Notes: generated by a model not told the origin, from the sequence alone. DNA of 32,000 bases from Methanobrevibacter olleyae (GCF_900114585.1 NZ_FOTL01000021.1:6746-38745); one strand, 5' to 3'; shown: positions 3 through 27,077, counted from the stretch's first letter. A program made the numbers and translations.

Positions 3-3000
3 TGGTACACTTTAGATGAGTATATTTCTGAGTTTTTCAATCCAAATAATAATCGTACAATTGGTATTTTAGAAAGTACTATGTATATTTCATCTCAGCA
101 GTTACATCCATGTAATAAAATTATGGAATATTTAGAATCAAAAGGATATAATGTTATACCTGTTTTTGCTGCAGGAGCTACACCTGAACAATTAAAAGTT
201 ATGGTTGAATCTTTTACTAGTGCAGGTACTAATGTATCAGGATTCATTTCAAACTCATCTAACTATGATATTTATGTTGATGCTATCATATCTGTTGTAG
301 CATATGGTGTTGGCGGAGAAAATTTCACAGCTACTAAAAAATTTTTTGAAGAACTTGGTGTTCCAGTATTTAGAGCCGTTCATTCTGATTATGTTTCTAA
401 TGAAAAATGGGAATTAGGAACTACTGGTTTAACTAGTGAAAGAAGTGATAAATGGTGGCATGTCTCTATTGCTGAAGCTCAAGGAATCATTGATGCAACA
501 TTTATCGGCGGTGCCGCTTTTTATATCTCAAATACTACTGGCGCTAGAATTTTAACTTATATTCCCCACAAGGAAAATATTGAACTACTATGTGATAGAA
601 TTGATTCATGGGTTGATTTACAATATATGAATAATAGTGAAAAACTTATTTCATTAATTTATTATAACTACCCTCCTGGAAAACAAAACATTGGATCCAG
701 TTATTTAGATACTATTACAAGTATTTATAACATGCTTTATACTTTAAATGCAGCAGGTTATAATCTTGGTGAATTACCTTCAAGTGTATCTGAATTAGAA
801 GATTTAATGTTAAAATGTGGTATCAATGTTGCTACTTGGGCTCCAGGAGAACTTGAAAAGTTAGCAAACCAATCTAATATTGTTTTACTACCGGTTAGTG
901 AATATACCGATTGGTTTAATACATTACCTGAAATTGTAAAAATCCAGGTAAAACAAGGCCCTATCCCATATATCGGTGAACTAGCTAAAAGAGCAGTTGA
1001 GTTAAAATATACAGTTACTATTGGAGATACAATAGATGATTGGTATAACCAGATTGTTGCTCTACTTCCAGAAGATAAAGCAGTTGAGGCAACTAAAATA
1101 TTAGATAATATTGTTGCATCTTTAAAAAATTATACCGCCACATATGATGAGGGGCATTATAATTCATTCTTACAATATTATGAAGAATTTAAAGAACTAA
1201 ATGTTGAAGGATTAACAGGTTGGGGTGATTCTCCAGGAAATGTTATGGTTGTTAATAGGGATAGTATTGATTACTTTGTTATTCCTGGTTTAAAATTTGG
1301 TAACATTTACATAGCTCCAGAACCTCAAAGAGGATGGGAATCTGATATTGAAAATCTTTATCATTGTACTGCTGTTGCACCTACCCACCAATATTTAGCA
1401 GCTTACTATTATATGCAAACTTATTATCCCAATGGGATGGTATTTGTAGGAAGGCATGCAACTCACGAATGGTTACCTGGTAAAGAAATTCTTTTATCTT
1501 CAACTGATTATGGATCTATCGTTGTAGGTAAAGCACCTCAATTGTATTTCTATATTAGTGATGGTTTAGGAGAAGCTATTCAAGCTAAAAGAAGAGGATT
1601 CGCTGTTATAATTTCACATTTAACTTCTCCATTATCCTATACTCATCTATATGGCAATTTAACTGTTGCAGCTAATTTAATAGAGGAATACTTAAATTCA
1701 AATAATCAAAATTTAAAAGATGAAATTAGTGAAGAATTACGTAATTTAATTATTGATAATGATTATTCAATGAACCTTGGTTTAACTAAAGAAGAGGTTC
1801 AAAATCTTTCATCAGATGAATTGTTAAATAAAGTAAATAATTTCTTAAAGTCAGCTCAATCTACAATATACCCTTTAGGTCTTCATGCTATTGGACAGTA
1901 TTGGAATGAACAAGATTTAGCAAGTACTGTTACAGTTATGATGTCCTTTGATTTTGATTTAAAAAATAATAAGGGTGAAACAAACCTCTTTAAAGAACTT
2001 TCTAAAGTTTACTTTAATTCAGATTACAACAGTTTAACAGCTTTTGAAAGAGAATTCATATTAAATAGAGCTTATGATATTTCTAAAGCTTTAATTTACT
2101 GGGATGTTGAAACAGTACACTACGTTTTGATAGATTCAAATAGGGGATTAAATAATTCTAACTTTACAGCATGTTTAAATTTAGCTAAAGAATATATAAA
2201 TTTAATTAATGCTAGTATTCAAGCAGAATTAGATGGAATGCTTGACGGTTTAAATGGGAAATATATTCCAATTAGTGAAGGTGGAGAGATTATTGCAAAA
2301 CCTAGCATTATGCCAACTGGAAGAAATATGTTCCAAGACCAATCATGTGAACTTCCAACACAAGAAGCTTATGAATATGCTAAAATCCTCGCACTTTTAA
2401 CATTATCAGATTTAAATGATACTACTGAAAAAATTATAATGGGGATTTGGTGTGTTGAAACTGCAAGAGACGATGGCGCTTTAGTTTCCACAGTTCTTTA
2501 TTTACTTGGAATGAAACCTGTATGGACAGATTCACCAAGTGCAGGTATTGATGATAATCATGACCACGATGATGAATCTACAAGTGGTAAAAAAGTTAAA
2601 AATATGCCAGTATATCTAAAATTAGAAGATTTAGAACGTCCTGAAGCTTGGGCTAAAAAAAGAATTGATCTTACAATAATTACAAGTGGATTGTTTAGAG
2701 ATCTATACTCCTCTCAAACAATTCTTCTTGACAATGCATTTAGAGTTGCACTAGCAAGATCTTATCTTACCATTACCTCTAATAAAACATTAATGGATGG
2801 TGAATATGGAGTTCAAGTTAAAGAAGCTATTGATTATATAATGGAAGGAATTGGATATTATGGAGTTAGTGGTGCTTATAGAGAATCCTTAGAAGATAAT
2901 TATGTAGCTAAACATTGGCTTGAAGATTGTTTATACTATTTAAGCATTGGTTATAATGCAACTTATGCAGGCGAATGTGCTATTACAAGAATTTTCGCAC

Positions 3001-4364
3001 CGCCTAATGGAGATTATGGTGCAGGTATATCTAAATTAGTGTCAATGTCTTGGACTTGGAATACAACTGATGAATTAGCTGATTTCTACTTAGGAAGAAT
3101 GGGCAATATGTATTCTAAAAACTACTGGGGAGATACCAATCCATTAGTATTCTTAAGGGCATTATCTAATTCAGATACAATTATAGCTAGTCGTAACACT
3201 AATCAATATGGAGTACTTGACAATGATGACTTCTTTGATTATTGGGGCGGTTTATCAATGACTGTCGAAAAAATCTCTGGTAAAGCTCCTAAGTTCAATG
3301 TTTTAATGTATGCTAATAGAAACAATGCTTATATTTCATCTTTAGAAGAAGTAATGTATCAAGAAATTGCAGCAAGGTATGATAATCCTGAATGGATTAA
3401 AGGAATGATGGGTGAAGGTTACAGTGGAGCTCGTTATATATCAAATAAATTTGTAACTAATTTATATGGTTGGCAAGTAACTAGGCCTTCTGCAGTAAGT
3501 GATGATTTATGGAATAGACTTTACAATACTTATTATAATGATAAATATGATTTAGGTGTTAAAGAGTGGTTAAAAACTGGAAATAATGCATATTCACTTA
3601 TTTCTATGAGTGGAACCATGCTAACTACAATTAAAGAAGGTTATTGGAATGCAGATGATGCAACTATAAGAGATATTGCAAATACATGGGCACAAGCTAC
3701 AGTTCAAAATGGTGTAGCATGTTGTGATTGTAGTTGTGGAAATATTGCGATGATGCAATGGGCAATTCAATATGTAAATCCAGATATTTTAGCTCAATTA
3801 TTACCAAAACTATATGAATCTACTAGAAATCCAGTATTTTTAAATAATAGTCAAAATGTCCAACCACAGGATAAGGAGGATGGTTCAAATACTGAAGCTT
3901 CATCCCCAAATCCAGTTGAAGGCTCTGATTCAGCAAAAGTTATTGCTTCAAATTCTACAACAACTACAGAAACTAACTCACAAAGTAGTAGTAGCAGCAG
4001 TAGTAGCAGCAGTAGCAGTAGCAGCAGTTCACAAAATTCAATAAACTCTAGAGGAGAATCAGCATCAAATGTAGGAGTTGATGGTCAAATTGGCAATCCA
4101 CAAGGACAATCTGCTTCAGATGGTGGTGAAAAGGGCGAAGCTGGAGAGGTAGCTAGTTCTTCCTCACAAGGTGCTGATGTTAAAAGAGCAGTAGAAATAA
4201 ATCCAATCACAGCAAAATCAGCAAGTAAAGTTGGTTTATCAATAATTGCAGTAATTGGAGTATTATGTTTAATAGGAGTAATCGCTTTAGGTTACTTTAG
4301 AAACAGAGATGATGAAGAAAAAATTAAAGATTTAGATAAATTATACAATGAAAAAGTTATTTAA
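3..4364 (+). CDS. CobN/Mg-chelatase-family large-subunit homologue, 5'-truncated by the window edge, with a C-terminal Ser/Thr/Asn-rich linker and a single TM anchor
   Basis: The reading frame is open from nt 3 (no stop between 3 and the ATG at 81), so the true start lies upstream. CobN/ChlH-like blocks are visible: RTIGILES...KIMEYLESKGYNVIPVFA, GRHATHEWLPGK, MPTGRNMFQD, TSGLFRD, YGVLDNDDFFDYWGG. About aa 1245-1370 of the listed ORF is low-complexity S/T/N/Q/G, including 16 consecutive Ser. A hydrophobic helix and a charged tail follow. Confidence 0.85.
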   Translation, partial: WYTLDEYISEFFNPNNNRTIGILESTMYISSQQLHPCNKIMEYLESKGYNVIPVFAAGATPEQLKVMVESFTSAGTNVSGFISNSSNYDIYVDAIISVVAYGVGGENFTATKKFFEELGVPVFRAVHSDYVSNEKWELGTTGLTSERSDKWWHVSIAEAQGIIDATFIGGAAFYISNTTGARILTYIPHKENIELLCDRIDSWVDLQYMNNSEKLISLIYYNYPPGKQNIGSSYLDTITSIYNMLYTLNAAGYNLGELPSSVSELEDLMLKCGINVATWAPGELEKLANQSNIVLLPVSEYTDWFNTLPEIVKIQVKQGPIPYIGELAKRAVELKYTVTIGDTIDDWYNQIVALLPEDKAVEATKILDNIVASLKNYTATYDEGHYNSFLQYYEEFKELNVEGLTGWGDSPGNVMVVNRDSIDYFVIPGLKFGNIYIAPEPQRGWESDIENLYHCTAVAPTHQYLAAYYYMQTYYPNGMVFVGRHATHEWLPGKEILLSSTDYGSIVVGKAPQLYFYISDGLGEAIQAKRRGFAVIISHLTSPLSYTHLYGNLTVAANLIEEYLNSNNQNLKDEISEELRNLIIDNDYSMNLGLTKEEVQNLSSDELLNKVNNFLKSAQSTIYPLGLHAIGQYWNEQDLASTVTVMMSFDFDLKNNKGETNLFKELSKVYFNSDYNSLTAFEREFILNRAYDISKALIYWDVETVHYVLIDSNRGLNNSNFTACLNLAKEYINLINASIQAELDGMLDGLNGKYIPISEGGEIIAKPSIMPTGRNMFQDQSCELPTQEAYEYAKILALLTLSDLNDTTEKIIMGIWCVETARDDGALVSTVLYLLGMKPVWTDSPSAGIDDNHDHDDESTSGKKVKNMPVYLKLEDLERPEAWAKKRIDLTIITSGLFRDLYSSQTILLDNAFRVALARSYLTITSNKTLMDGEYGVQVKEAIDYIMEGIGYYGVSGAYRESLEDNYVAKHWLEDCLYYLSIGYNATYAGECAITRIFAPPNGDYGAGISKLVSMSWTWNTTDELADFYLGRMGNMYSKNYWGDTNPLVFLRALSNSDTIIASRNTNQYGVLDNDDFFDYWGGLSMTVEKISGKAPKFNVLMYANRNNAYISSLEEVMYQEIAARYDNPEWIKGMMGEGYSGARYISNKFVTNLYGWQVTRPSAVSDDLWNRLYNTYYNDKYDLGVKEWLKTGNNAYSLISMSGTMLTTIKEGYWNADDATIRDIANTWAQATVQNGVACCDCSCGNIAMMQWAIQYVNPDILAQLLPKLYESTRNPVFLNNSQNVQPQDKEDGSNTEASSPNPVEGSDSAKVIASNSTTTTETNSQSSSSSSSSSSSSSSSSQNSINSRGESASNVGVDGQIGNPQGQSASDGGEKGEAGEVASSSSQGADVKRAVEINPITAKSASKVGLSIIAVIGVLCLIGVIALGYFRNRDDEEKIKDLDKLYNEKVI
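3984..4028 (+). repeat. In-frame (AGY)15 serine-codon microsatellite inside the CobN-like stalk region
   Basis: The direct read is agtagtagtagcagcagtagtagcagcagtagcagtagcagcagt, followed by tca, giving 16 Ser. Confidence 0.95.
4230..4298 (+). other. Predicted C-terminal transmembrane anchor of the CobN-like protein
   Basis: The 23 hydrophobic residues VGLSIIAVIGVLCLIGVIALGYF are followed by RNRDDEEKIKDLDKLYNEKVI (basic then acidic tail). They are preceded by a long hydrophilic S/T/Q/G linker. Confidence 0.7.
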
Positions 4365-4469
4365 GGTGTTTGAATGGATGTAATTAGTATTTTATGGCAA
4401 TTAGGGATTTTATCTTAAGGTGTTTGAATGGATGTAATTAGCATTTTATGGCAATTAGGGATTTTATCC
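4362..4469 (+). repeat. 54-bp tandem duplication (2 copies) spanning a stop codon, a Shine-Dalgarno and the first 14 codons of the downstream gene
   Basis: Copy 1 (4362-4415) and copy 2 (4416-4469) read taaggtgtttgaatggatgtaattag(t/c)attttatggcaattagggattttatc(t/c). They differ at only two positions (4388/4442 and 4415/4469). Confidence 0.97.
4374..4418 (+). CDS. 14-codon upstream ORF (MDVISILWQLGILS) created by the 54-bp duplication; translation unproven
   Basis: It has its own AAGGTG Shine-Dalgarno (4363-4368) 5 nt before the ATG at 4374. The stop TAA at 4416-4418 is the first triplet of copy 2 and abuts the SD of the real gene. Confidence 0.3.
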   Translation: MDVISILWQLGILS

Positions 4470-5135
4470 GCTGTTTTAATCTTTGGAATTAAATTAGGTT
4501 TAGCTACTGGTTTAGCAAACATGTCTAAAAAGTATTTGGCTTTAGTTTCAATCGGGTATGGTGCTGGAGTTTTAATTTTAACTGAAATTGCTTCATTTTA
4601 TACAACAGTAATAACTGATTTAATTTATTCATATAATTTTGAATTCTTTTTAATAATGGCAATTATTATGATTTTAGCAGGTATCTTCACAATTAGGGAA
4701 TACAAAGTATTTGAGAGAAATACAACTGCAGCAACATGTATGGCTGTTATTGCACCATGTCCATGTTGTTTTGGATCAATTTTAGTAAGTATATTGTTAG
4801 TAGCTCCTACTGTGGGATTAGGTCTTATGAATCTAAGTGCCATAGTAGCTTCAGCATTAGTTTTAACTATTGTGGGAACTTACTTTGCATCAAATTTCTT
4901 GATAAAGTTCATCAATAAGCCTTATCCAATAGTTTTAGGTAATTTCATGTTCTTTTTAGGAATTTACTTCTTATTATCTGCTTTATTCCTTCCAAATATC
5001 ACTGCTATGATTCAAAATCCAATGAATGAAATATCAATCGCATCTGTTGATTATTTAAGTATTGCAATAATTGTGATACTGGTTTTTATGGCAATAGGTG
5101 GGATTATATCCAAGAGAAATACTAATTTTAGGTGA
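4428..5135 (+). CDS. Polytopic membrane protein with an intramembrane Cys cluster C-x6-C-P-C-C (DUF2162-like, function unknown)
   Basis: AAGGTG SD at 4417-4422. The 235-aa product is almost entirely hydrophobic with roughly 6-7 predicted helices. The motif ATCMAVIAPCPCCFGSILV lies at codons 104-114. Confidence 0.85.
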   Translation: MDVISILWQLGILSAVLIFGIKLGLATGLANMSKKYLALVSIGYGAGVLILTEIASFYTTVITDLIYSYNFEFFLIMAIIMILAGIFTIREYKVFERNTTAATCMAVIAPCPCCFGSILVSILLVAPTVGLGLMNLSAIVASALVLTIVGTYFASNFLIKFINKPYPIVLGNFMFFLGIYFLLSALFLPNITAMIQNPMNEISIASVDYLSIAIIVILVFMAIGGIISKRNTNFR

Positions 5136-5141
5136 TTATTT

Positions 5142-5786
5142 ATGGTTACATCCGTTCCAGGTAGTGAAATTATAACTTCAGGGCTAAATATGATTTCCCA
5201 GAGTTTACAGATTCCTGTAATAATCTTTTTACTTATCTTTGCAATTTTTGCAGTAATTACATTGGGAGGCCTTGTATCTGAATATAGTTCTCGAAGAAAG
5301 ATTTCAGTAGATTCACTTGAAAAAATCATCTATTCAATAACAAATGCAAACTCCTATGATGAAATCTTAAGCATTGTTAAAAATGCAAGAATATACGAAT
5401 CACAAAAAGTAATTTTAATTAAAGTTTTACGTGCAAATTCATTACCTAGCGAAGCTAGACATACTTTAGCTAAAAAATTAATTGAAGTAGAAGAAGATAA
5501 ATTTACTAAAATAATTGAAAAAACAGATATTGTAACAAAAATTGGCCCCACTCTTGGATTAATGGGTACGCTTATTCCTATGGGTCCGGGACTTGCTGCA
5601 TTAGGTGCTGGTGATGTTAATACATTAGCTAATGCAATCATTGTTGCTTTTGATACAACTGTTGTAGGTATTGGATCTGGTGCTGTTGCATACTTTGTCT
5701 CTAAAGTAAGACGTAGATGGTATGAAGAATATTTATCCGATTTAGATGCTCTAATTGATGTAATATTGGTTAAATTGAAAAATTAG
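5142..5786 (+). CDS. MotA/TolQ/ExbB-family proton-channel protein
   Basis: The AGGTGAT SD overlaps the upstream TGA stop, leaving a 6-nt gap. There is one N-terminal TM and two C-terminal TMs. The family-typical block is KIGPTLGLMGTLIPMGPGLAALG followed by AIIVAFDTTVVGIGSGAVAYF. Confidence 0.8.
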   Translation: MVTSVPGSEIITSGLNMISQSLQIPVIIFLLIFAIFAVITLGGLVSEYSSRRKISVDSLEKIIYSITNANSYDEILSIVKNARIYESQKVILIKVLRANSLPSEARHTLAKKLIEVEEDKFTKIIEKTDIVTKIGPTLGLMGTLIPMGPGLAALGAGDVNTLANAIIVAFDTTVVGIGSGAVAYFVSKVRRRWYEEYLSDLDALIDVILVKLKN

Positions 5787-5797
5787 AGGTTTTTCCA

Positions 5798-6130
5798 ATG
5801 GTTAGAGAAAAAAATAAAAAAAGATTTGCTGAAGGTGAAGATGACCCTATGTCAGGTACAACAAATCTTGTAGATGCAATGCTAGTTATTGCAGTAGGAC
5901 TTTTAATTTTTGTTGTAATTAGTTGGAATATGCAAAGTGTAATATTTCAAGATAATTCTCAAAATCCAAACCAAGCTATTCAAGACTCACAGCAAACCAC
6001 TGAAGTTAGTGAGGGACAAGTATTAAATGAAACCCCAGATACATCTAATACATCAGGAAAAGGATATATGGAAATGGGTAAAGTTTATAAAGATCCTTCA
6101 ACGGGTAAATTGATTATGGTTGAAGAATAA
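5798..6130 (+). CDS. Small single-pass membrane protein, ExbD/TolR-like (DUF2149-like)
   Basis: The GAGGT SD (5786-5790) overlaps the upstream TAG, leaving an 11-nt gap. The N-terminus DPMSGTTNLVDAMLVIAVGLLIFVV resembles the ExbD/TolR N-terminal helix with its conserved Asp. The external domain is short and Q/S/T-rich. Confidence 0.65.
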   Translation: MVREKNKKRFAEGEDDPMSGTTNLVDAMLVIAVGLLIFVVISWNMQSVIFQDNSQNPNQAIQDSQQTTEVSEGQVLNETPDTSNTSGKGYMEMGKVYKDPSTGKLIMVEE

Positions 6131-6420
6131 TTTAATATTTATATATTTTCTTCTATAGTTTCTTCTTTCTTTTCATTATAAAAAAATTATCTTTAATTTT
6201 TCAATTTTTTACTTTTATATTAAAATTATTTTTAATTTATTTATTATTTTTCACAATACTTTTTTAATATTTTTCTCATTTTTCTAATTATTTTTTAATT
6301 TTATAATTTATTTTAGACTTATTTTTAATTCTCTCCCTATTTTACTTATTTTTTTAATTTATAGTTAATTTTATACCTCTTTTTTGATTTATATGATATC
6401 ATATTCTTTTTTTTAAATTT
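6131..6420 (+). terminator. T-rich tract with multiple oligo-T runs downstream of the four-gene cluster (archaeal oligo-T termination signals)
   Basis: The sense strand is strongly T-biased with many T5-T7 runs (for example caatttttt, ctttttt, attttttaatttt, atttttttaattt). The motif TTATTTTT(T)AATT recurs about 4-5 times. Confidence 0.4.
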
Positions 6421-6618
6421 AAATTATTGAGTATTATTTTTTAAGCTAAATTAGGTCATTTAGTAATAATATAATTAATTTTAAATATATTATTAAACAA
6501 TAATATAGTATATATGTAGTAATAATTGTATTCATTTTTTTATTACATATGAAATAGTGAATAATTTTTATTATTTTTAAATTAATTTGCTATTTTTATA
6601 AAAATTTGGAGGAATTTT

Positions 6619-9600
6619 TTGCGAAACAATGTTAAGAATTCATCGTTATTTTTAATATTGCTAATTGTATTAGTTTTATCTATATCTTCGACTTTTGCAC
6701 AAGATTTAGATAATTCCACTGATGATTTAGCTGTTTATAATGATGGTGAATCTATTTCAATTGAAAATCAAGACTATGAATACGAAGATATATCTAGTGT
6801 AAATGATGATGTTTATACTGCAGAGAGTACCTCTGTAGTAAATGATGACGAATATGAAACGGATACTTTATCTGTAGCTAATGAGGGGCCAAATGCTATG
6901 GATACTGTATATAGCGTAAATTATGAAGAAAACTTAGGTTATGGTGAAACTGTCCCACCTATGCCTGAAGTAGATAGTGGTGTTGTTTCAGGAGGTATTG
7001 ATTTCACTGCTGTTAATCCTTGGACTACATCAGGTAATTTAGTTTATACCATTCCAGATGGAATGACAAACCTTAAATCAGCAATTGTAATTGTTAATGT
7101 CTATTCTGGTAGTGGTGCTAATACTTATGCTCTTTATTCTAATGTATCTTTAGATACTAAAAATGGATTAGAGGAATTAGGATATGAAGCATTATACTTT
7201 GATACAACAACTACTAATGACCCTAATGTTTATCTCATCAATGATCATACTACAAAGCAATATTCCGATTGTCAAATGGTTTATAACATCACCAATAAAG
7301 TAAATAGTCTAAGTTCTGGAGATTTAATTAAAATTAATGTTGTTGACTCTCCATATCCAGATAAAAATTTCGATGGAAAAATTAAGTTAATTTCTTTATT
7401 ATTTGCATTTGATGATGGAGATAATGATAAATATGCTTACTGGTTACATGCTGGTCAATTATGGACTCAAGATACTGCTAATTTTGATTTCAATACTCAA
7501 GATTATACCGGTGCAACAAACAATATGACTTTAAGAACTATTGCTTTATCAAGTTCAGTTGCTAATTCTTATAAAATAAACAATATTACAGCTCCTTATG
7601 ACTCATCAAGTCAAGGTTCTTATTATTTAGATATCAAATGGAATAATCTTAGAACTTATTTCAATGAAGGAAATAAGACTAACTTCTGGTATCAAAATAC
7701 TGCTGCTTCATATAAAACAAATGTTGCTTTATTAACTGCAAGCGAACTTGAATCTGAACAACCTTTAACTGAAGTTTATGTTGATTATGCTAATGGTAAT
7801 GATGGTAACCTTGGTACTAGTCTTTCTACTGCTTTCAAAACTATTTCTCATGCCTTAAGTGTTGTAGAAGAAAATGGTATTATTAATATAAATGGCGTTA
7901 ATTATTTAGATGATGTTGATGTTAATGGTTTAAACATTGATAAAAACATTTCAATTATTGGTTTAGGTGATGATGCTACTATTGATGCTAAAAATATTAG
8001 TAGAATATTCAATATCGGCGCTTACACTGTTAACTTATCTAATTTAGCATTTACTAATGCTAATGTTGCTAGTGCTAGTGATAAACGTGGAGGGGCACTA
8101 TGGGTTAATGGTGCTACTTTAACTATCGATAATTGTAAATTTATTAATAACACTGCAGGTGCTAGTTCATCTTATGGTGGAGCTATTAATTTAAAATCAA
8201 CCAGTACAACTATTAAAAACTCATACTTCGAAAACAATTCAGCATTTTATACAGGTGGTGGAATAAATGCTGAAAATAACAATGTCTTATTAAATATTTC
8301 TGATAGTATTTTCACTCTTAATGAAGTTTTAAATACTGGTTGGGCAACTGGTGCTGGAATTTGTGCATATAATACTGTAATAATTGATAGATCCTCATTT
8401 TACGGCAATAAGTTAGCAGAAGGTAAAAATGGTAGGTCTATTAATGAATATTCAACTGGTAATTTAACCATCACTAATTCTATTTTATTAGATGGAACTA
8501 ACTCTGTTTATGTAACAACTGGCCCTACTACTTTAGAAAACAATTGGTGGGGAAATAACGACACTACCAAAGATTCAACTCCTAAAGACTTAGGATACAC
8601 AAATGCAGATCTAAGTTCATACTTATACCTTAATATGACTGCTTTTGCTAGTGGCATGGGTGTAGGTGATACTGCATCTATTAATATTAATTTAGTTTCA
8701 ACTGATGATGAAACAATTAATATAATGAACTTGCCAGCTACACTTACTGCTGTAAATGGTAATGTTAATCCAGAAGAAACTGAACTTGTAAACGGTCTAG
8801 GTTCTGCAGTATACACAATCACAACTGCTGGTGACAATTCTGTAACCGTCCATGTTTTAGGTATTGAAGATACTTATTCATTATCTTCTGAGGATATTAT
8901 TTCTACTGAAGTTGTTTATGTAAATTCTACTGGCGGATCTGATACAAATCCAGGAAATAGTTGGGATAATGCTGTTAAAACAATTGAAAAGGCAATAAGC
9001 ATTGTAGATGATAATGGCACTATTTATGTTGCAGATGGTCTTTATCAATTAAGCGATTCAACTCCTGCAACTGGTATTGCAATAACTAAAAATATTTCTA
9101 TTATTGGCCAAAGTGTAAATGCAGTAATTTCTGGTGGAAATACAAAAAGAATATTCACCATAGGCGTAAATAAAACTTTAAATATCACTAGTTTAACTTT
9201 AACAAATGCTCATGCTTCAGGCTCAGCCTACGACTTTGGTGGAGCTATTTTAATTGAAGATAGCGGAAATACTAATCCTATCGTTGCTGGAAATTTAATA
9301 ATAACTGATTCTGTAATTTCTAACTCCTATGCATCTTATGGTGGTGCTATTGGTACTAATAGAGGAACAATTGATAATATTAACAATGTAACATTTATTA
9401 ACAATAGTGCTTTATCAGGCGGAGTCTTTTATATACAACAAAAAGGAACTTTAACCATTGGGGACAATTGTAAGTTTATAAATAACACTGCTAGTGGTCG
9501 TGGTTCTGTAACTTATGCTCAAGCAAAAGTAACTACTGGTAAAAATAATTTCTTCTATGGAAATATTGCAACTGGAAATTATGGTTACGGTACTGTATTT

Positions 9601-12600
9601 GGTTATGGATTCGAAATAGGTCCAGCTAATGTATTTGTTAATAACAAAGCAACACAAGGAGGAGCATTATATCTCGGCGGTAATTCATTTACTGGATTTG
9701 GTAGTTATTGTATATTTATAAATAGCACAGATGATAATGGTCGCCCAGTTGTAAAACAAAGTGCAGGCCGTGCATTAACTCTTGATAATTGTTATTGGGG
9801 AACTAACACCCCTGATTTCAGTGCTTTATGTAATGGAGCAATAAACTACACTAGTTATTTAATATTAAATATTAGTTCAGATGTAAATAGTGTTCGTGTT
9901 GGAGATAGTGCAGTAATTACTGTTGATTTAACTAAAAACCAAAATGGAACAACTGTTGATATTAACTCACTTCCAAGTGTTCTTCCTTTAATATTCACTG
10001 TTGAAAATGGTAATGTTAACCCTATAGAAACTGAACTTCTAAATGGCATTGGATTAACTGCATATTCCCCTGCCGTAATGGGTGAAGGTTCTGTAACTGC
10101 TAATATTTATGCAATAGCTGAAACTTTAAGCTTAGAAGTATTACCTGAGTTAGGAACTGTATTTGTTAATTACACTGGTGGTTTAGATACTAATGATGGT
10201 AGTAGTTGGGATAATGCTATAAAAACAATAAGTCATGCTTTAGAAATTGTTGGTGAAGGAAAAACAATCTACATTGCAGATGGACTTAACTATTTAGATG
10301 ATTCTACAGCTGATGGTTTAGATATTGGTAAAAATCTTTCTATTGTTGGTATGGGAGATGATGTTGTAATCGATGCGAATAATAATGGTAGAATATTCAG
10401 CATTGGTGCTTATACTGTTAATTTATCTAATTTAATCTTTATTAATGGTAACTCTTCTACTGCTACTGATAAACGTGGTGGTGCTTTATATGTTAATGGT
10501 ACTACATTAATTATTGATAATTGTAAATTCATTAATAACACTGCAGGTACTAAAGCTGCAGCCGGTAATGTTTCAACTTATGCTGGAGCTATTAATTTAA
10601 AATCTTCAACAACCACCATTATCAATTCAGAATTTGAGGGTAATACTGCATGGTCTACTGGTGCTGGCATTAATGCCGAAAATTCAAATGTTTTATTAAA
10701 CATTTCAGATTCAACATTTATAAACAATATACTCTTAAACAATGGTTGGTCTGCAGGAGCTGCAATCTGTGCTTATAATACTGTCATAATTAATAAATCT
10801 GTATTCTATGGTAATAGATTAACTGATGAAACTAGAAATGGTAGAACTATTAATCAATATGGAAATGGTAGTTTAACAATCACTAACTCCATTTTATTAG
10901 ATGGTGAAAAAGGTGTATGGATTGCAGCTGGCCCTACTACTTTAGAAAACAATTGGTGGGGAAATAACAATGCTAACAAAGATACCAATCCAGAAGACTT
11001 AGGATACACAAATGCAAATGTAAACTCATACTTAGTATTATCTTCTAAAATAGAACAAGAAAATATTTACAATGGTGATTTAGTAACAGTTACTACTACT
11101 TTAGAAAACAATGAAATTGAATTACCTATAACATTAAATGTAAATATAGGTGAAATTACACCTAATGAAGCTACCATAACTTCTAGTGAAGTATCTATTT
11201 ATAATGCTACTACTTTAGGTGATGCAGTAATCACCATAGATGTTTTAGGCATTAAAAATGAAATTAATTTCTTTGTAAAAGAAACTCTTCCTAATGTTAA
11301 CATTAGCCAAATTAAAACTCAATGGGCTGATGGCATCTATCCTGGAGTAAACAATACTTTCAATATTACATTAAACAATGGAGGAGATGAAAGTGTTGAA
11401 AATTTAGTACTTGAAGTTTATTCAAATGAAACCGGTGAATTAATTGCTAGTTACACTATTGATTCAATAGTAACTGGAACTTCATCAATTTTAGTAACTG
11501 ATCCTACAATCCGTCCAATAACAGAAGAAAGCCTATGGCCAGCTCCTCAAAATAATAAAATTAAATTTACATTTAATTTAATTAGAGGTGAAGATTTAGT
11601 TACTAGTGTAAGTGTTGATAAAATGCTTGCATATAATGGTTACTTCAATAAAACCTATGCATATGGTGGCCATGATAATATTATTAATAGAAATTACACA
11701 ATTTCTGGAGATATAATCATTGCTACTCAAGATGTAAGTACTTATGGTGATCAATATACAAGATTCAGAAATGAAACTTGGAACATTGAAACACCAGAAG
11801 ATGCAGAAATTGTAAAAGTTTTATTATACTTTAACTATAACTGGGATACATCATTCTTCCCTAATGGTTGGAATTTAACATTTAATGATGTTGATATCCT
11901 TAATGATTATCTCACTCATGAAACTGATAGAGGTAACCTTGGTGGATGGGGAGCATATAATTATGGTCTCTTAGTCTTTGATGTAACAGACTATTACAAA
12001 ACTAATGAAAATAATAGTTTTGTTATAAATAAAACAGGAAATTGTGCATTATATCCATCTACATTATATGTTTTATATAATCTAACTGATAGTGCTTATG
12101 TTAAAGATGTATACTTCTCAGATATCTGTGATGTATATTATCCTAACTACAATCAATTTGGATATGATGACTTACTCAAAACAGTTGTTAACTATAATGA
12201 TATTAATTTAGATAATTTAGCTAATGCTATATGGTATGTATTTACTGGATCAAGTAGTATGAATAATAATTTAACATTTAACGATGGAGTAGTAGTTAAT
12301 CCATTCAATGGTTACACAGCTAATGATTGTCGCCCATACATCTATGATGTAACTAGTTTGATTAAAAATAATAATGAAGCTTGGTTTATCACAGGTACTC
12401 AATCATCAACTACTGTTGCTTATGAACAAGTTTTAGTTGTTGGAAGAATAATTAAAACTGAAACTTCTATCACTGTAGCTAATGACACTGTCAATTTAAC
12501 TTATGGTGATGAATTTGAAATCGGAGCTACATTAACTCCTACAGAAGCTGGTGAATTAACATATACAAGCAGTAACGAATCTGTTGCCATTGTTGAAAAT

Positions 12601-14313
12601 GGTAAAATTATTGCTAAAGCATTCGGAAATGCAATTATAACAGTTTCATTCGAAGGAAACGAATATTACGAGCCTTCAAGTGCTACTATAGACGTAACCG
12701 TTAACAAAAAGGCTGTGAATATTGTTCCTGATCTAGTTCTCAATGATAAGTACTACCCGGGAGTGGTTACTATTATTATTAGATCTGATGTCGATGGTCT
12801 TTATAATGTAACTGTTGGTAAAGATACCGCTGAAGTTAACGTTACTGATGGTTTAGGATATGAATCATTCATAGGAATTGATGCAGGTATACAAAATGCA
12901 ACTGTAAAATTCTTAGGTAATGAAATCTATAATGAAATTACTGTTAATAGAGAATTTGAAATTTTAAAGCAAGTAGTACCTAACTTTAATGTTGAATTTG
13001 GTGATGCAACTTATCCAGATAATGTTACTGTCTTAATCAATGGTCCTTCTGGAACTTATACTGTTAAAATTGACGATGAACACTCTGTTGAAATCGTAGT
13101 TGATGAAGATAATGTTGGAATTGGCAGTATCAGTGGTTTAGCTGCTGGTACTTACTCTAATGTAAATGTATCTTATGGTGGTAATGATAATGTAGAAGAG
13201 GGTTTTAAACTCTACACTATCACAGTTAAAAAACCGGATTCCAAAGAAAACATATCTGATATTATAGAAATTAACACAACTGTTCTTGAAAACTCAACTG
13301 ATACTGTATTTAGTATTATTTTACCTAAAAATGCTACTGGTTACTTATTAGTGGATGTTAATGGTAAACATTATTATGCTCCAGTTGAAAACGGTACTGC
13401 TTCTCTTGCTATCCCAGGATTAGCTCCTGGAAACTACAGTGCAACAGTTACTTACACTGGTGATGATAACTATGCTTCCGTTACAAAGACAACAACTATT
13501 AGTGTTCCTTCAAATGTTCCAGATAATGCTTTTGATATTCCTAAAACCAGTGAAAGCAGTTCCGCAACTTATTCAGTTAAATTACCTCCAGATGCTACTG
13601 GTTATCTTGAAGTAGATGTTGATGGAACTAAATATGTTGCTGCTTTAAATAATGGATTTGCTAGTGTTACTGTAGCTGGTTTATCTGAAGGAAAACATAA
13701 TGTAACCGTTACTTACACTGGTGATGGTAAATACTCTAGTGTTAGAAAATCTACAACTTTAAATGTTCATATTCCTGTATATAAAATTACAAAAAATAAG
13801 AACGTTGCAGCAATTTATTCAGCTAAAACATCTTACAAAGTTCTTATAACTAAAGATGGAAAAGCTGTTGGTGCTGGTGAAAAAGTAACTATCAAATATA
13901 ATGGTAAAACATACACCGTTAAAACTGATAGTAAAGGTTATGCAAGCTTAAAACTTAACACTAAAATAAAAGTCAAAAAATATACTATTACCGCAACATA
14001 CAAAGGTGTAAAAGTATCTAACAAAGTTACAATCAAACACGTAATTAAAGCATCCAACAAAAAAGTCAAAAAGTCCAAAAAAGTTACTAAAGTAAAAGTT
14101 TCCTTGAAAAAAGTTAACGGCAAATATCTTAAAGCTAAAAAACTTAAAATCAAATTCAGTGGAAAAAATTACAAAGTAAAAACCAACAAAAAAGGAGTAG
14201 CTACTTGGAAAGTTAAAAAATCCATGCTTAAAAAACTTAAAGTTGGTAAAAAATACAAATACAAAGTAACTTACGGAAAAGACAGTTTAACTAAAAAATT
14301 AACCATTAAATAA
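6619..14313 (+). CDS. Giant secreted adhesin-like surface protein (2564 aa)
   Basis: TTG start with a GGAGG SD at 6608-6612. Signal peptide MRNNVKNSSLFLILLIVLVLSISSTFA. Reading order: an acidic N-terminal region; module A (about 6969-7755, VSGGIDF...VNVYSGSG...FDGKIKLISLLFAFDDGD); three beta-helix-type units with recurrent NxT/GGA turns, each ending in NNWWG or CYWG (about 7771-11030), each followed by an Ig-like segment; a CARDB-like segment plus module B (about 11290-12450); a Big_2-like domain (about 12465-12705); further Ig-like repeats; and a Lys-rich tail (13768-14310). Modules A and B may be DUF3344-type. Confidence 0.9.
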   Translation: MRNNVKNSSLFLILLIVLVLSISSTFAQDLDNSTDDLAVYNDGESISIENQDYEYEDISSVNDDVYTAESTSVVNDDEYETDTLSVANEGPNAMDTVYSVNYEENLGYGETVPPMPEVDSGVVSGGIDFTAVNPWTTSGNLVYTIPDGMTNLKSAIVIVNVYSGSGANTYALYSNVSLDTKNGLEELGYEALYFDTTTTNDPNVYLINDHTTKQYSDCQMVYNITNKVNSLSSGDLIKINVVDSPYPDKNFDGKIKLISLLFAFDDGDNDKYAYWLHAGQLWTQDTANFDFNTQDYTGATNNMTLRTIALSSSVANSYKINNITAPYDSSSQGSYYLDIKWNNLRTYFNEGNKTNFWYQNTAASYKTNVALLTASELESEQPLTEVYVDYANGNDGNLGTSLSTAFKTISHALSVVEENGIININGVNYLDDVDVNGLNIDKNISIIGLGDDATIDAKNISRIFNIGAYTVNLSNLAFTNANVASASDKRGGALWVNGATLTIDNCKFINNTAGASSSYGGAINLKSTSTTIKNSYFENNSAFYTGGGINAENNNVLLNISDSIFTLNEVLNTGWATGAGICAYNTVIIDRSSFYGNKLAEGKNGRSINEYSTGNLTITNSILLDGTNSVYVTTGPTTLENNWWGNNDTTKDSTPKDLGYTNADLSSYLYLNMTAFASGMGVGDTASININLVSTDDETINIMNLPATLTAVNGNVNPEETELVNGLGSAVYTITTAGDNSVTVHVLGIEDTYSLSSEDIISTEVVYVNSTGGSDTNPGNSWDNAVKTIEKAISIVDDNGTIYVADGLYQLSDSTPATGIAITKNISIIGQSVNAVISGGNTKRIFTIGVNKTLNITSLTLTNAHASGSAYDFGGAILIEDSGNTNPIVAGNLIITDSVISNSYASYGGAIGTNRGTIDNINNVTFINNSALSGGVFYIQQKGTLTIGDNCKFINNTASGRGSVTYAQAKVTTGKNNFFYGNIATGNYGYGTVFGYGFEIGPANVFVNNKATQGGALYLGGNSFTGFGSYCIFINSTDDNGRPVVKQSAGRALTLDNCYWGTNTPDFSALCNGAINYTSYLILNISSDVNSVRVGDSAVITVDLTKNQNGTTVDINSLPSVLPLIFTVENGNVNPIETELLNGIGLTAYSPAVMGEGSVTANIYAIAETLSLEVLPELGTVFVNYTGGLDTNDGSSWDNAIKTISHALEIVGEGKTIYIADGLNYLDDSTADGLDIGKNLSIVGMGDDVVIDANNNGRIFSIGAYTVNLSNLIFINGNSSTATDKRGGALYVNGTTLIIDNCKFINNTAGTKAAAGNVSTYAGAINLKSSTTTIINSEFEGNTAWSTGAGINAENSNVLLNISDSTFINNILLNNGWSAGAAICAYNTVIINKSVFYGNRLTDETRNGRTINQYGNGSLTITNSILLDGEKGVWIAAGPTTLENNWWGNNNANKDTNPEDLGYTNANVNSYLVLSSKIEQENIYNGDLVTVTTTLENNEIELPITLNVNIGEITPNEATITSSEVSIYNATTLGDAVITIDVLGIKNEINFFVKETLPNVNISQIKTQWADGIYPGVNNTFNITLNNGGDESVENLVLEVYSNETGELIASYTIDSIVTGTSSILVTDPTIRPITEESLWPAPQNNKIKFTFNLIRGEDLVTSVSVDKMLAYNGYFNKTYAYGGHDNIINRNYTISGDIIIATQDVSTYGDQYTRFRNETWNIETPEDAEIVKVLLYFNYNWDTSFFPNGWNLTFNDVDILNDYLTHETDRGNLGGWGAYNYGLLVFDVTDYYKTNENNSFVINKTGNCALYPSTLYVLYNLTDSAYVKDVYFSDICDVYYPNYNQFGYDDLLKTVVNYNDINLDNLANAIWYVFTGSSSMNNNLTFNDGVVVNPFNGYTANDCRPYIYDVTSLIKNNNEAWFITGTQSSTTVAYEQVLVVGRIIKTETSITVANDTVNLTYGDEFEIGATLTPTEAGELTYTSSNESVAIVENGKIIAKAFGNAIITVSFEGNEYYEPSSATIDVTVNKKAVNIVPDLVLNDKYYPGVVTIIIRSDVDGLYNVTVGKDTAEVNVTDGLGYESFIGIDAGIQNATVKFLGNEIYNEITVNREFEILKQVVPNFNVEFGDATYPDNVTVLINGPSGTYTVKIDDEHSVEIVVDEDNVGIGSISGLAAGTYSNVNVSYGGNDNVEEGFKLYTITVKKPDSKENISDIIEINTTVLENSTDTVFSIILPKNATGYLLVDVNGKHYYAPVENGTASLAIPGLAPGNYSATVTYTGDDNYASVTKTTTISVPSNVPDNAFDIPKTSESSSATYSVKLPPDATGYLEVDVDGTKYVAALNNGFASVTVAGLSEGKHNVTVTYTGDGKYSSVRKSTTLNVHIPVYKITKNKNVAAIYSAKTSYKVLITKDGKAVGAGEKVTIKYNGKTYTVKTDSKGYASLKLNTKIKVKKYTITATYKGVKVSNKVTIKHVIKASNKKVKKSKKVTKVKVSLKKVNGKYLKAKKLKIKFSGKNYKVKTNKKGVATWKVKKSMLKKLKVGKKYKYKVTYGKDSLTKKLTIK
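7771..11030 (+). repeat. Three intragenic beta-helix units; units 1 and 3 share long near-identical nucleotide stretches
   Basis: The 39-mer ggccctactactttagaaaacaattggtggggaaataac occurs at 8521-8559 and 10930-10968. gataattgtaaatt(t/c)attaataacactgcaggt occurs at 8128 and 10516. The offset is 2388-2409 bp, and unit 2 (about 8908-9850) is more divergent. Confidence 0.85.
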
Positions 14314-14484: not shown

Positions 14485-14512
14485 TATATTTGAGGAAAAT
14501 GAGGAGATTTAA
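14468..14512 (+). CDS. Upstream ORF 2, 14 codons (MKNKKIIFEENEEI); translation unproven
   Basis: Its TAA stop (14510-14512) shares the A at 14512 with the ATG of the main gene (TAATG). The GAGGAG SD of the main gene lies inside this ORF (14501-14506). Confidence 0.3.
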   Translation: MKNKKIIFEENEEI

Positions 14513-19603: not shown

Positions 19604-20302
19604 TTATTTAAAATAAGAAATTAAAATTTCTGTATCTATATCAAGCCTTAGATTTGTATCATTTTGATAAACTTTTGCTATAACTGGAACATCACAAAGC
19701 CCTTCAACCATTTTGATATTATCATTTTCCATAAGTTCATCTTTATAATTATTCATTATTATAGCACATAGATGAATATTTCTATTTTTCAAATATTCAA
19801 CTGTAGTAACAATTGAGTTAATAGTACCAAGTCCTGCATCTGCAATAAGTATAACATCAAGATTAAGATATTTTACTATGTCTTCTAACATAATATTGTT
19901 TTCATTGCCTTTTCCTTCATAACGTATAGGGCAAACTATTCCTCCACTACCTTCCATTACAATATAATCATATCTCTCAGATACATTATCATAAGCTTCT
20001 TTAACTCTTTTCAGATTTACTGGATTTCCTTCAATCTGACTTGCAAGGTGTGGTGAAACTGCAGTTTCATAGATATATGGAACTAAAAAGTCCGTATCTT
20101 CATCTAAATTAGCTATAGTTAATACTTCTACAGCATCACCAGGAATAAGATTATCGTTTTCATCTCTTATAGCTCCACTTAAAGCAGCTTTAAAGTATGT
20201 AGCATTAAAATCATGGTCTCTGAGATATTTAAGTAATAAGCCAGTTACATATGTTTTTCCAATATCCGTACCAGTTCCTAAAATGAATAGTCCTTTAGAC
20301 AT
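19604..20302 (-). CDS. bioD: Dethiobiotin synthetase
   Basis: The N-terminal P-loop LFILGTGTDIGKTYVTG and the 232-aa length are typical of BioD. The TAGGTGAT SD overlaps the bioB stop, leaving an 8-nt gap. Confidence 0.88.
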   Translation of the reverse strand: MSKGLFILGTGTDIGKTYVTGLLLKYLRDHDFNATYFKAALSGAIRDENDNLIPGDAVEVLTIANLDEDTDFLVPYIYETAVSPHLASQIEGNPVNLKRVKEAYDNVSERYDYIVMEGSGGIVCPIRYEGKGNENNIMLEDIVKYLNLDVILIADAGLGTINSIVTTVEYLKNRNIHLCAIIMNNYKDELMENDNIKMVEGLCDVPVIAKVYQNDTNLRLDIDTEILISYFK

Positions 20303-20310
20303 AATATCAC

Positions 20311-21288: not shown

Positions 21289-21340
21289 AATAATACCTAA
21301 AAATAATAATACCCAAAAATAATAATACCTATTTAAATAA
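21289..21340 (-). promoter_or_regulatory. bioB leader: a TATA-like box followed by three 16-nt tandem copies of an SD-containing unit
   Basis: The minus strand reads TTATTTAAAT AGGTATTATTATTTTT GGGTATTATTATTTTT AGGTATTATT ATG. TTTAAATA resembles the archaeal TATA consensus. Confidence 0.4.
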
Positions 21341-21474
21341 AACCACCATAAAAGTGAAAAAATAATTAATTAAAATAAATTTTAAAAATAGAAAAATAAT
21401 TAAAAATTAATTCTAGATTCAAATGAAAAAACTTTAGTCCAGCTTTTACAATGGGAAGACTCCTAAAAGGTAGG

Positions 21475-22206: not shown

Positions 22207-22360
22207 ATAACCACCATCTAAATGAAATTTATGAAAAATAACCAGTATAAATTATTAAAATTTTATATTTTAATTTATTATTTAAATTAAATGATATTTT
22301 AAAACTAATATCTATTTATATTATTTATAATATATAATAATTTTTTAAAATAATTAAAAA

Positions 22361-22500
22361 TAAAATAAATAAAAATAAAATAACTAAAAAATGAGAAAAA
22401 CTGATAAAAAAAATAAAAATAAAATAACTAAAAATAAAATAACTAAAAATAAAATAAATAAAAAATGAGAAAAACTGATAAAAAAATAAAAATATAATAA
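22361..22500. repeat. A-rich nested direct repeats between hef and trmI (T-rich on the gene-sense strand)
   Basis: The exact 22-mer atgagaaaaactgataaaaaaa occurs at 22391-22412 and 22465-22486 (period 74). It is embedded in repeated ataaaataa(c/a)taaaaa units. On the minus strand these form many oligo-T runs immediately 3' of hef. Confidence 0.85.
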
Positions 22501-22542
22501 CTAAAAAAAGATAAATTAATAAAAATAGGTAGCAATAATTAT

Positions 22543-26956: not shown

Positions 26957-27077
26957 TTTAACACCTTCATCTTTAAAAAATAAAATTGATTAAAAAATTA
27001 ACTATTATGAAAATAAAAATATGAAAAAATAGTTAATATTAAATATACTAAAACTAGTAAAAAGATTTTGCTTAAGG

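Follow-up and report, generated by a model that had tools for sequence, protein, structure and literature searches.

The hmuYRSTUV haem operon is found in Porphyromonas, Prevotella, and Bacteroides, where NCBI labels HmuS as “cobaltochelatase subunit CobN,” HmuU as “MotA/TolQ/ExbB,” and HmuV as “DUF2149” (PMC10434189, PMC11681262). In Bacteroides thetaiotaomicron, HmuS is a membrane-anchored periplasmic NADH-dependent haem dechelatase with transmembrane (TM) segments at both ends; its structure has been solved by cryo-electron microscopy (PDB 9d26), and the H538A substitution abolishes dechelation (PMC12583661). Porphyromonas gingivalis HmuS is likewise predicted to be periplasmic, and to have a signal peptide and terminal TM helices (PMC13227078). 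A figure legend suggests that HmuU and HmuV power HmuR (PMC12583661), and current reviews term the roles of HmuT, HmuU, and HmuV unknown (PMC12094164, PMC13227078). According to later papers (PMC6460266, PMC10846266), Rodionov et al. put forward a CobN-like chelatase for metalloporphyrin salvage, named “BtuS,” in 2003. A surface-exposed “BchH with N- and C-terminal TMHs” of Methanobrevibacter ruminantium was listed as a vaccine target in 2010, and this homolog has been tried as an antigen for vaccination (PMC2812497). Here we describe a four-gene operon of the archaeon Methanobrevibacter olleyae that encodes homologs of HmuS, HmuU, and HmuV and occupies positions 3 to 6130 of a 32,000-nucleotide (nt) stretch of DNA (NZ_FOTL01000021.1:6746-38745; the whole stretch is called the window below). 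We propose that this operon is a BtuS/HmuS-type system for metallated tetrapyrroles outside the membrane, which would carry out (de)metallation or salvage at the cell surface with the assistance of the proton-motive force (PMF); judged from the sequences and by analogy, this proposal has about an even chance of being correct.

The genes, all on the plus strand, are called S (a CobN-Mg_chel protein, 3..4364), T (a DUF2162 membrane protein, 4428..5135), U (a MotA/ExbB/TolQ-superfamily proton-channel subunit, 5142..5786), and V (a DUF2149 single-pass protein, 5798..6130). These are genes 1 to 4 of the original prediction, which had named the same four families that Pfam assigns. The 5' end of S is cut by the window edge, so that the 3' 1453 codons of a gene for a 1763-amino-acid (aa) protein are present. 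Gaps of 63, 6, and 11 nt separate S-T, T-U, and U-V, and the Shine-Dalgarno sequences AGGTG, AGGTG, and GAGGT overlap the upstream stop codons TAA (4362-4364), TGA (5133-5135), and TAG (5784-5786); open reading frame (ORF) calls and the sequence bear out this predicted arrangement. Downstream of V lies an AT-rich, T-rich spacer of 488 nt (6131..6618, plus strand), read from the sequence as the probable operon end, and the gene after it has its own Shine-Dalgarno site. The short gaps, the overlaps of Shine-Dalgarno sites with stop codons, and the long spacer before a gene with its own ribosome-binding site make it likely that S-T-U-V is co-transcribed.

The locus was compared with the B. thetaiotaomicron hmu locus (L085), which was recovered from a gut metagenome via the HmuS stretch in a PDB alignment. 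U is 35% identical to HmuU (E = 4e-35), V is 30% identical to HmuV (E = 9e-9), S is 28% identical to HmuS over the best 526-aa segment, and the S, U, and V genes occur in the same order. HmuT and gene T have the same size and operon position, whereas the T slot is filled here by a DUF2162 protein that is not detectably related to HmuT. B. thetaiotaomicron HmuT was tried and rejected as a DUF2162 protein (no Pfam hit, BLASTP E = 19, and an hhalign probability of 1.4%). Since S, U, and V match their Hmu counterparts and T does not, the archaeal operon consists of the S-U-V core plus a different polytopic T. The M. olleyae locus further differs from hmu in lacking the hemophore HmuY and the TonB-dependent receptor HmuR, with no HmuY, HmuR, or HmuT homolog in the window or the 10 kb upstream, and in belonging to a monoderm host.

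Gene S matches Pfam CobN-Mg_chel (PF02514) with an E value of 2e-217. In the public contig L001 the gene starts 928 nt upstream of the window (L001:4646), and the protein begins with MFKNSEKILLIFIIIGLITISSNIAFA/QSVDE, which has a basic n-region, a hydrophobic h-region, and an AxA cleavage site (AFA/QS, the slash marking the cut). The full-length protein thus shows an N-terminal signal pattern together with the C-terminal anchor, in keeping with the original suggestion that a CobN-fold module is displayed outside the membrane. Its domain order is signal, Asn/Glu-rich repeats, chelatase body, linker, TM helix, and charged tail. The Ser/Thr/Asn/Gln/Gly stalk that had been predicted is present as a low-complexity segment (3843..4229, plus strand) ending with KRAVEINP; the linker as a whole is 168 aa long (57% Ser/Thr/Asn/Gln/Gly/Pro), compared to 63 aa in HmuS. 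It is followed, again as predicted, by one TM helix, VGLSIIAVIGVLCLIGVIALGYF (hydropathy score of 2.88), and a 21-aa charged cytoplasmic tail (4230..4361, plus strand). From the signal peptide in the upstream sequence, we predict that S is an extracytoplasmic protein with a C-terminal anchor and type I membrane topology, which would hold its chelatase body outside the cell on a long stalk. Linkers of 63 to 195 aa are found in all U-V-linked S proteins, and nearly all of these proteins, in every group, have a hydrophobic N terminus, a chelatase body, a low-complexity linker, a C-terminal TM helix, and a short basic tail. S resembles HmuS in its hydrophobic N terminus, C-terminal TM anchor, predicted extracytoplasmic location, and lack of an AAA+ partner.

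CobNST and ChlHID are class I chelatases that act in the cytoplasm and are powered by AAA+ ATPases. S has in common with them the large-subunit fold family, the His motif, and the LDxDD(F/Y) cleft motif, and differs in being exported and anchored, with no AAA+ subunits encoded nearby. The public annotation would make S the cytoplasmic cobaltochelatase CobN of B12 biosynthesis, with unrelated neighbors. Matches to Pfam CobN-Mg_chel and to the NCBIfam CobN models, and the name “cobaltochelatase subunit CobN” given to homologs by NCBI, speak for it. We consider this explanation extremely improbable in view of the predicted signal peptide, stalk, and TM anchor; S also scores far below the cutoff in all nine NCBIfam CobN/BchH equivalog models (best score of 727 bits versus 1619), and U-V synteny is conserved across domains of life. 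No CobS/CobT or ChlI/ChlD AAA+ partner gene is encoded in the window, as had been noted before, or in the 10 kb upstream. In addition, methanogens use the early-insertion CbiX route (PMC3087415).

Among solved structures, the best relative of S is HmuS 9d26 (309 bits), followed by CobN (257 bits) and ChlH (256 bits). Residues were compared in an alignment of 26 U-V-linked S proteins with HmuS. The His of motif VFVGRHATHEWLPGK (1440..1484, plus strand) aligns with the catalytic His-538 of HmuS; the motif VFVGRHATHEW keeps this superfamily-wide His and differs from HFG(T/A)HG at 4 of 6 positions. S retains the catalytic His-538/Glu-577 dyad and equivalents of Ser-1067 and Asp-1208, and its cleft carries the conservative changes Q1198N, S1199T, and W1202Y. 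The axial His-1209 and Glu-1212 of HmuS are both replaced by Asp, which gives a CobN/ChlH-type motif, LDNDDFFDYWGG (3216..3251, plus strand), as the counterpart of LSLDHxxEFMGG in HmuS. Ile and Ala align with HmuS Met-79 and His-254, in a head domain where the alignment is weak, and the Met-rich insertion is missing (a maximum of 7 Met per 120 aa versus 21 in HmuS). Anchored S proteins of other subfamilies lie at roughly equal distances from HmuS, CobN, and ChlH or closest to CobN. These comparisons make S an exported protein that branches deep within the superfamily and keeps its cleft intact, and not an HmuS, CobN, or ChlH in the strict sense.

These data bear on the possibility that the operon is a strict Hmu ortholog, in which S would dechelate rumen haem, releasing Fe(II) as an iron nutrient and leaving protoporphyrin IX outside. 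In favour of this, no solved structure scores higher against S than HmuS, U and V are homologs of HmuU and HmuV and keep their order, the gut/rumen habitat fits, HmuS has a demonstrated biochemistry (PMC12583661), and the abundance of Methanosarcina barkeri “BtuS” proteins shifts with the Fe/S source (PMC10846266). Set against this, His-1209, Met-79, His-254, and the Met-rich insertion are all missing from S, HmuY, HmuR, and HmuT homologs are absent from the window and its upstream 10 kb, and for the other anchored S subfamilies CobN or ChlH is as near a relative as HmuS, or a nearer one. Furthermore, the nearest bacterial four-gene homologs are under B12 riboswitches (see below), not iron control, and free-living Methanobacterium species also have the system. 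Strict orthology to Hmu therefore seems quite unlikely to us.

Two further elements of S were noted. The His/Asp-rich insert DDNHDHDDE (2550..2576, plus strand) lies in a variable surface loop of domain V of the protein; it is present as originally reported, while conservation was not borne out, since it is lineage specific, and L015 and L081, the nearest members of the subfamily, lack it. The end of the chelatase body holds the Cys cluster ACCDCSCGN (3717..3743, plus strand). A Cys/His cluster of the form GV(A/T/V)CC(D/H)(C/H)(S/T)C(G/A)N occurs in nearly all archaeal, Firmicutes, and Actinomycetota S proteins (seen in L005, L008, L015, L022-L027, L033-L038, and L045, with L010 as the exception); the same column reads GLPGSGHTRPDHP in proteobacterial S proteins and SCSGFVCDN in HmuS. 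The cluster could be a metal hand-off site.

Gene U matches Pfam MotA_ExbB (PF01618) with an E value of 7.6e-10 (39.1 bits versus a cutoff of 22.9) and contains the channel motif GPTLGLMGTLIPMGPGL (5544-5594, plus strand). Hydropathy and charge give an ExbB/TolQ-like layout of TM1, a charged loop of ∼80 aa, and two channel helices. The original placement in MotA_ExbB thus stood, while its three TM helices did not emerge as such from hydropathy: the Kyte-Doolittle plot has two strong segments and a weaker third, GPTLGLMGT, as is usual for this family. U alone has no match in the PDB; a U-family profile weakly reaches MotA stators (E ∼ 0.003) through the channel helices in the C-terminal third.

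Gene V matches Pfam DUF2149 only (E = 3e-22), a small family with 337 representatives at 50% clustering (E ≤ 0.001). The protein has a charged N terminus, one TM helix, and an external tail, with a predicted N-in orientation; the external part comprises a variable linker of ∼45 aa and a conserved 20-aa motif, whose pattern GxVYxDPxTGK lies at 6077-6121 (plus strand) in the conserved C-terminal stretch. The TM helix carries the invariant Asp-26 (codon 5873-5875, plus strand). Across 45 diverse DUF2149 proteins, Pro17, Asn23, Asp26, Met28, and Gly34, in or before the TM helix, and Gly94 and Asp99, in the C-terminal stretch, are invariant.

The TM helix of V aligns with the Asp25-bearing helix of ExbD (NLVDAMLVIAVGLL versus PFIDVMLVLLIIFMV), a weak match over 19 to 22 residues. 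When the V-family profile was searched against the PDB, only a 22-mer ExbD TM peptide was found (E = 4.9), and hhalign with Escherichia coli ExbD aligned 22 TM columns at 15.8% probability. Membership of V in the ExbD family was therefore rejected, as both the hidden Markov model (HMM) and profile-profile comparisons align the TM helix only; the originally noted likeness to the Asp-bearing helix of ExbD held, and the implied family placement did not. The motifs on which the earlier reading had been built (DDNHDHDDE, C-x6-CPCC, GPTLGLMGTLIPMG, and the V helix) are all located where it had placed them.

What V has in common with ExbD, TolR, and MotB is a single pass, an invariant acidic TM residue, and a gene directly after that of the channel subunit. 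Family assignment, predicted topology, and the invariant Asp make U-V a MotA/ExbB-type proton channel with an Asp-bearing single-pass partner, and a 5:2-type proton-driven assembly is a reasonable inference by analogy. The M. olleyae system differs from TonB-ExbB-ExbD, TolQRA, and MotAB in having no TonB, TolA, or outer-membrane partner; the external part of V is unlike the periplasmic domains of ExbD and TolR, and U is distant from every solved stator.

Gene T matches Pfam DUF2162 (PF09930) with an E value of 1.7e-61 (208 bits versus a cutoff of 34.4), as do all 31 diverse T proteins, and hydropathy predicts about seven TM helices. The motif C104-x6-C111-P-C113-C114 (C-x6-CPCC; 4734-4775, plus strand) is in TM4. 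The charged loops, read with the positive-inside rule, suggest an N-out, C-in topology, which would put the Cys motif in the cytoplasmic half of TM4. In an AlphaFold2 model of moderate confidence (predicted local distance difference test score of 77.5), the helix breaks at residues 109-110, just before PCPCC. The motif is conserved in the T subfamilies linked to S and to DUF169 genes, and only C114 is nearly invariant family-wide. No second family for T was found when the 31 T proteins were searched against Pfam at E ≤ 10, when the profile was searched against the PDB, or by fold comparison; a homolog search with T returned just close Methanobrevibacter relatives of 83 to 100% identity.

Gene neighborhoods were surveyed in 80 loci retrieved with the DUF2149 profile from 185,579 species genomes; neighboring families were named by Pfam, and counts refer to genes within 9 kb of V. 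A U gene of the same subfamily precedes V in 79 of the 79 loci with upstream sequence, across archaea and both monoderm and diderm bacteria. In the Methanobacteriaceae (52 loci; Methanobacterium, Methanobrevibacter, and Methanosphaera), U is found in 52, T in 38, and S in 11, alongside Peripla_BP_2 (16 loci), FecCD (14), an ABC ATPase (13), FmdE (16), CbiM (7), and DUF169 (8); PDGLE accompanies CbiM in three of these loci (L007-L009). The bacterial nondiderm group (19 loci, mostly Firmicutes and Actinomycetota, with three that are probably misbinned) has U in 18, T in 7, and S in 7, with Peripla_BP_2 in 4, FecCD in 3, an ABC ATPase in 5, CbiM in 2, and FmdE in 2. Neither group has a TonB-dependent receptor (0 of the 71 loci labelled archaeal or monoderm). 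All nine loci of Gammaproteobacteria and Verrucomicrobiota have U and S and none has T; a TonB-dependent receptor is present in five and BtuF/C/D-like genes in six, and CobO/BtuR, CobB/CbiA, CobQ, CobT, and CobS also occur as neighbors. The neighborhood of CobN-like, DUF2162, MotA/ExbB, and DUF2149 genes named in the original prediction does recur across the Methanobacteriaceae; its extension to the Methanococcales was not confirmed, as all archaeal loci found in this survey belong to the Methanobacteriaceae and the clusters of distant DUF2149 proteins yielded hardly any taxonomic names. Two or three paralogous systems, differing in type, occur within single Methanobacterium genomes.

All four M. 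olleyae proteins have homologs in Firmicutes and Actinomycetota T-U-V-S or S-T-U-V operons; identities to those of L045 are 36% (S), 36% (T), 49% (U), and 43% (V). Because no TonB-dependent receptor accompanies the motor in the 71 archaeal and monoderm loci, it must act on something else encoded nearby. Similarly, as archaea and Firmicutes have U-V without receptor or TonB, the powering of HmuR suggested for HmuU and HmuV cannot be the general role of the pair.

Cobalamin riboswitches, identified with Rfam, accompany the bacterial homologous operons with scores of 60 to 138 bits, compared to a gathering score of 31.5. A riboswitch lies directly upstream of S, or of an operon-heading receptor gene, in eight of the nine diderm loci and directly upstream of T-U-V-S in four Firmicutes loci, two of which have tandem copies (L026:8037-8228 and 8314-8499; L027:8036-8228 and 8315-8500). 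In a fifth Firmicutes locus, the riboswitch precedes a BtuF/D/C-like-T-U-V-S cluster. Rfam found no cobalamin riboswitch in the B. thetaiotaomicron hmu locus, and its search of the window with the upstream flank and of seven other archaeal loci gave no riboswitch. These riboswitches at Firmicutes and diderm operons indicate that the module is wired to cobalamin status outside the Bacteroidota. Together with the CbiM genes beside archaeal loci, they favour cobalt, corrinoids, or nickel over haem iron as the general theme. BtuFCD-like importers, CbiM, and the bacterial riboswitches in relatives all lend support to the originally predicted, putative role in metal or tetrapyrrole acquisition. As a separate observation, L027 has a third cobalamin riboswitch on the opposite strand, and L026 has a cyclic di-GMP-I riboswitch 4 kb upstream.

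This context makes it possible, if doubtful, that the operon serves cobalt and corrinoids (or nickel) in particular: outside the cell, S would trap corrinoids or else remove or insert Co or Ni, and so feed CbiM- or BtuFCD-type importers, as in the “BtuS” prediction. Besides the riboswitches upstream of Firmicutes and Proteobacteria operons, the cobalamin salvage and biosynthesis genes of the diderm loci argue for this, as does the position of CbiM+PDGLE next to S-T-U-V or T-U-V, and of BtuFCD-like genes next to T-U-V, in the Methanobacteriaceae. The cleft motif of S is of CobN type, and methanogens have a high demand for Co and Ni. S also resembles BtuS, in the definition given second-hand by PMC6460266, in being distinct from both CobN and ChlH, and the bacterial relatives of the operon are under cobalamin riboswitches beside btu-like transport genes. 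In contrast, the M. olleyae S subfamily (VGRHA...DYWGG) is neither the CbiM-adjacent nor the riboswitch-controlled one, no importer or Co-related gene is found beside the M. olleyae locus, and the archaeal loci examined have no riboswitch. With neither importer nor riboswitch alongside, the substrate of the M. olleyae subfamily is not settled by the context of its relatives.

In the PMF-assisted surface (de)metallation or salvage that we propose, S would bind an external metallo-tetrapyrrole (a corrinoid, haem, or Ni-porphinoid) and remove or exchange its metal. U-V would couple the PMF to this step of S, or to ligand release and hand-off. Since ATP is not available outside the cell, U-V would stand in for the ATP-driven AAA+ partner of cytoplasmic CobN/ChlH. 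T may use its intramembrane thiols to hand the freed soft metal ion across the membrane; its cargo could instead be reducing equivalents, which HmuS-type dechelation needs. As for the metal, the context of relatives favours Co or Ni and the analogy with HmuS favours Fe.

Several points weigh against this proposal. The role given to T is a guess; its Cys motif is subfamily specific, T is not homologous to Bacteroides HmuT, and no T is found in diderm loci. V has no similarity to ExbD outside the TM helix and lacks an ExbD-like periplasmic domain. The dechelatase activity of HmuS is not transferable to S, whose cleft appears from its residues to be chelatase-like (CobN/ChlH), and a btuS1 btuS2 double mutant of Bacteroides fragilis still dechelated haem (PMC6460266). 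The M. olleyae locus has no recognizable metal-regulator site and is without a riboswitch or an adjacent importer. Finally, in S-less Methanobacteriaceae loci the ORF just upstream of (T)U-V encodes a different secreted, C-terminally anchored protein, either of DUF11 type or a 160-aa protein designated “c18.” Because (T)U-V also follows such unrelated anchored proteins, the motor may serve anchored surface proteins generally.

The last point can be extended to the explanation that (T)U-V is a generic Tol/Ton-like envelope motor for anchored surface proteins, with S mainly a binding or adhesin-like, noncatalytic protein; the motor might then drive ligand release, positioning in the pseudomurein wall, or turnover. 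Many of the anchored proteins share a KAYE[IV]...TM...GY[YF][KR] module with S, and giant adhesin-like genes flank S-T-U-V here and in Methanobacterium. Against it, even very distantly related lineages keep the His/Glu dyad and cleft residues of S, the GY[YF] ending also occurs on proteins that are not U-V adjacent, and the repeated link to metal-chelate importers and B12 riboswitches points to nutrient acquisition. We hold this explanation to be improbable, to the same degree as strict orthology to Hmu.

The C-terminal module itself, [KR]-A/S-Y-E-[IV] followed by 12 to 18 aa, a TM helix, and G-Y-[YF]-[KR], is shared by otherwise unrelated secreted proteins: CobN-like, DUF11-type, and FmdE-containing. 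In gene S it reads KRAVEINP...LGYFRNR (window 4182-4310), and it was seen in L008, L010, L015, L022-L024, L031-L035, L041, L044, L048, L051, L055, L067, L070, and L073. No NCBIfam sorting-signal model matches the GY[YF][KR] ending. As a motor-coupling signal this ending was rejected, as it is enriched without being specific (17 of 34 U-V-adjacent versus 8 of 26 nonadjacent proteins). From its distribution, the module may be a surface-anchor or sorting signal of the Methanobacteriales.

A bolder form of the surface (de)metallation proposal, which we think unlikely, is that U-V is a distinct class of proton-driven motor, free of TonB and of any outer membrane, that does extracellularly for a class I chelatase-fold protein the job of ChlI/ChlD and CobS/CobT, namely to provide mechanical energy for metal insertion or extraction. 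The long stalk of S and its C-terminal TM helix might serve U-V as a TonB-like tether. If this reading were true, the target of HmuU/HmuV in Bacteroidota would likewise be HmuS instead of the receptor HmuR, and the Methanobacteriaceae would have expanded the motor to several kinds of anchored surface proteins.

A CobN-like exported protein (the 2003 BtuS prediction, as cited above, and M. ruminantium BchH, PMC2812497), the Hmu operon, and the activity of HmuS are already known. The original prediction, which was largely right in substance, overstated both the ExbD assignment and the novelty of the kind of system, as S, U, and V are homologs of HmuS, HmuU, and HmuV, HmuS is characterized, and BtuS was predicted in 2003. 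Three features indicated by our sequence comparisons were not found in the literature searched: a conserved core of S plus U-V that reaches archaea and monoderm bacteria, DUF2162 in the place of HmuT, and cobalamin riboswitches together with motor genes outside the Bacteroidota. The U-V motor pair and DUF2162 are likewise not discussed in that literature. The three features place the core in S plus U-V, present in organisms without an outer membrane, and not in the outer-membrane parts, and tie it to cobalamin and metal supply outside the Bacteroidota. They also give a hypothesis for how an ATP-less extracytoplasmic (de)chelatase might be energized. For rumen methanogens, they point to a predicted surface protein tied to the supply of Ni, Co, or Fe cofactors, which is relevant to methane mitigation.

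Further observations concern the S-linked and S-less loci of other genomes. A secreted, C-terminally anchored protein of ∼160 aa with no Pfam or NCBIfam match is encoded between CbiM and T-U-V (L004:4850-5365, L006:8143-8625, L013:7960-8433, and L014:8062-8547); its predicted mature N terminus is HG(V/I)DVT, in which the N-terminal His could be a metal ligand. In eight Methanobacteriaceae loci (L016-L021, L028, and L029), a DUF169 gene (COG2043) directly follows T-U-V, with a 566-aa DUF11 protein upstream instead of S and with APCPCCF kept in T. In eleven other loci, U-V is followed by a gene for a ∼233-aa protein weakly like methanogenesis marker 11 or the TCKD domain of TiaS. Two loci labelled as bacterial, L004 (Bacillales) and L083 (Bacillota), are probably misbinned, with gene content of Methanosphaera/Methanobacterium type and identities of 50 to 60%. 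L069, labelled Bacteroidales, is also probably misbinned, because its DUF2149 relatives are all from Firmicutes; it failed as a route to Bacteroidota hmu loci for the same reason.

The S-T junction of M. olleyae is itself duplicated. Of its 63 nt, 54 belong to a tandem duplication of the S-stop/Shine-Dalgarno/T-start junction (4362..4469, plus strand; copies at 4362-4415 and 4416-4469), which had been noted before and is real by Tandem Repeats Finder (2.1 copies, 96% identity). The first copy creates a 14-codon upstream ORF, MDVISILWQLGILS followed by a stop (4374-4418, plus strand), that repeats the first 13 codons of gene T and ends with a stop codon within, or overlapping, the gene T Shine-Dalgarno site. 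The 63-nt S-T spacing is also found in two conspecific metagenome contigs (L002 and L003).

Upstream of the window, a 30-nt unit repeated 3.4 times (L001:4827-4927) encodes the Asn/Glu-rich repeats NENTN(D/P)(L/Q)SI, which immediately follow the S signal peptide. Farther upstream, L001:4110-4201 holds 4.2 copies of a 22-nt unit, AATCTTTCTAATTGAATTAAAA, ∼445 to 535 nt before the start of gene S, within a 680-nt divergent intergenic region between gene S and an aminotransferase gene. The unit holds the palindrome TAATTGAATTA and could be an array of regulator sites. It has no other occurrence in the window or in 163 loci and is therefore uninformative on the regulating metal.

Directly downstream of the operon are genes for two giant adhesin-like proteins (6619-14313 and 14512-19335; 2564 and 1607 aa; DUF3344 and Big_3_5). 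In the Methanobacterium loci L034 and L038, S-T-U-V also has large surface proteins of DUF11 type as neighbors, and the M. ruminantium homolog mru2047 adjoins the adhesin-like genes mru2048 and mru2049. These neighbors could reflect a functional link or the mere abundance of such genes. The minus strand from 19604 to 31596 carries housekeeping genes, none of them related to the operon: bioD-like, bioB, a GCD14-type tRNA methyltransferase, a Hef-type helicase/ERCC4 nuclease, two Mur-ligase-like (pseudomurein) genes, AcnX, and a pyridoxal phosphate enzyme. Over the 15,135 nt compared with the public M. olleyae record CP014265.1, the window has six substitutions (window positions 3685, 6452, 13059, 13125, 13258, and 13497), one of which alters gene S, with Thr in the window (ANTWAQ) and Ile in the record (ANIWAQ).

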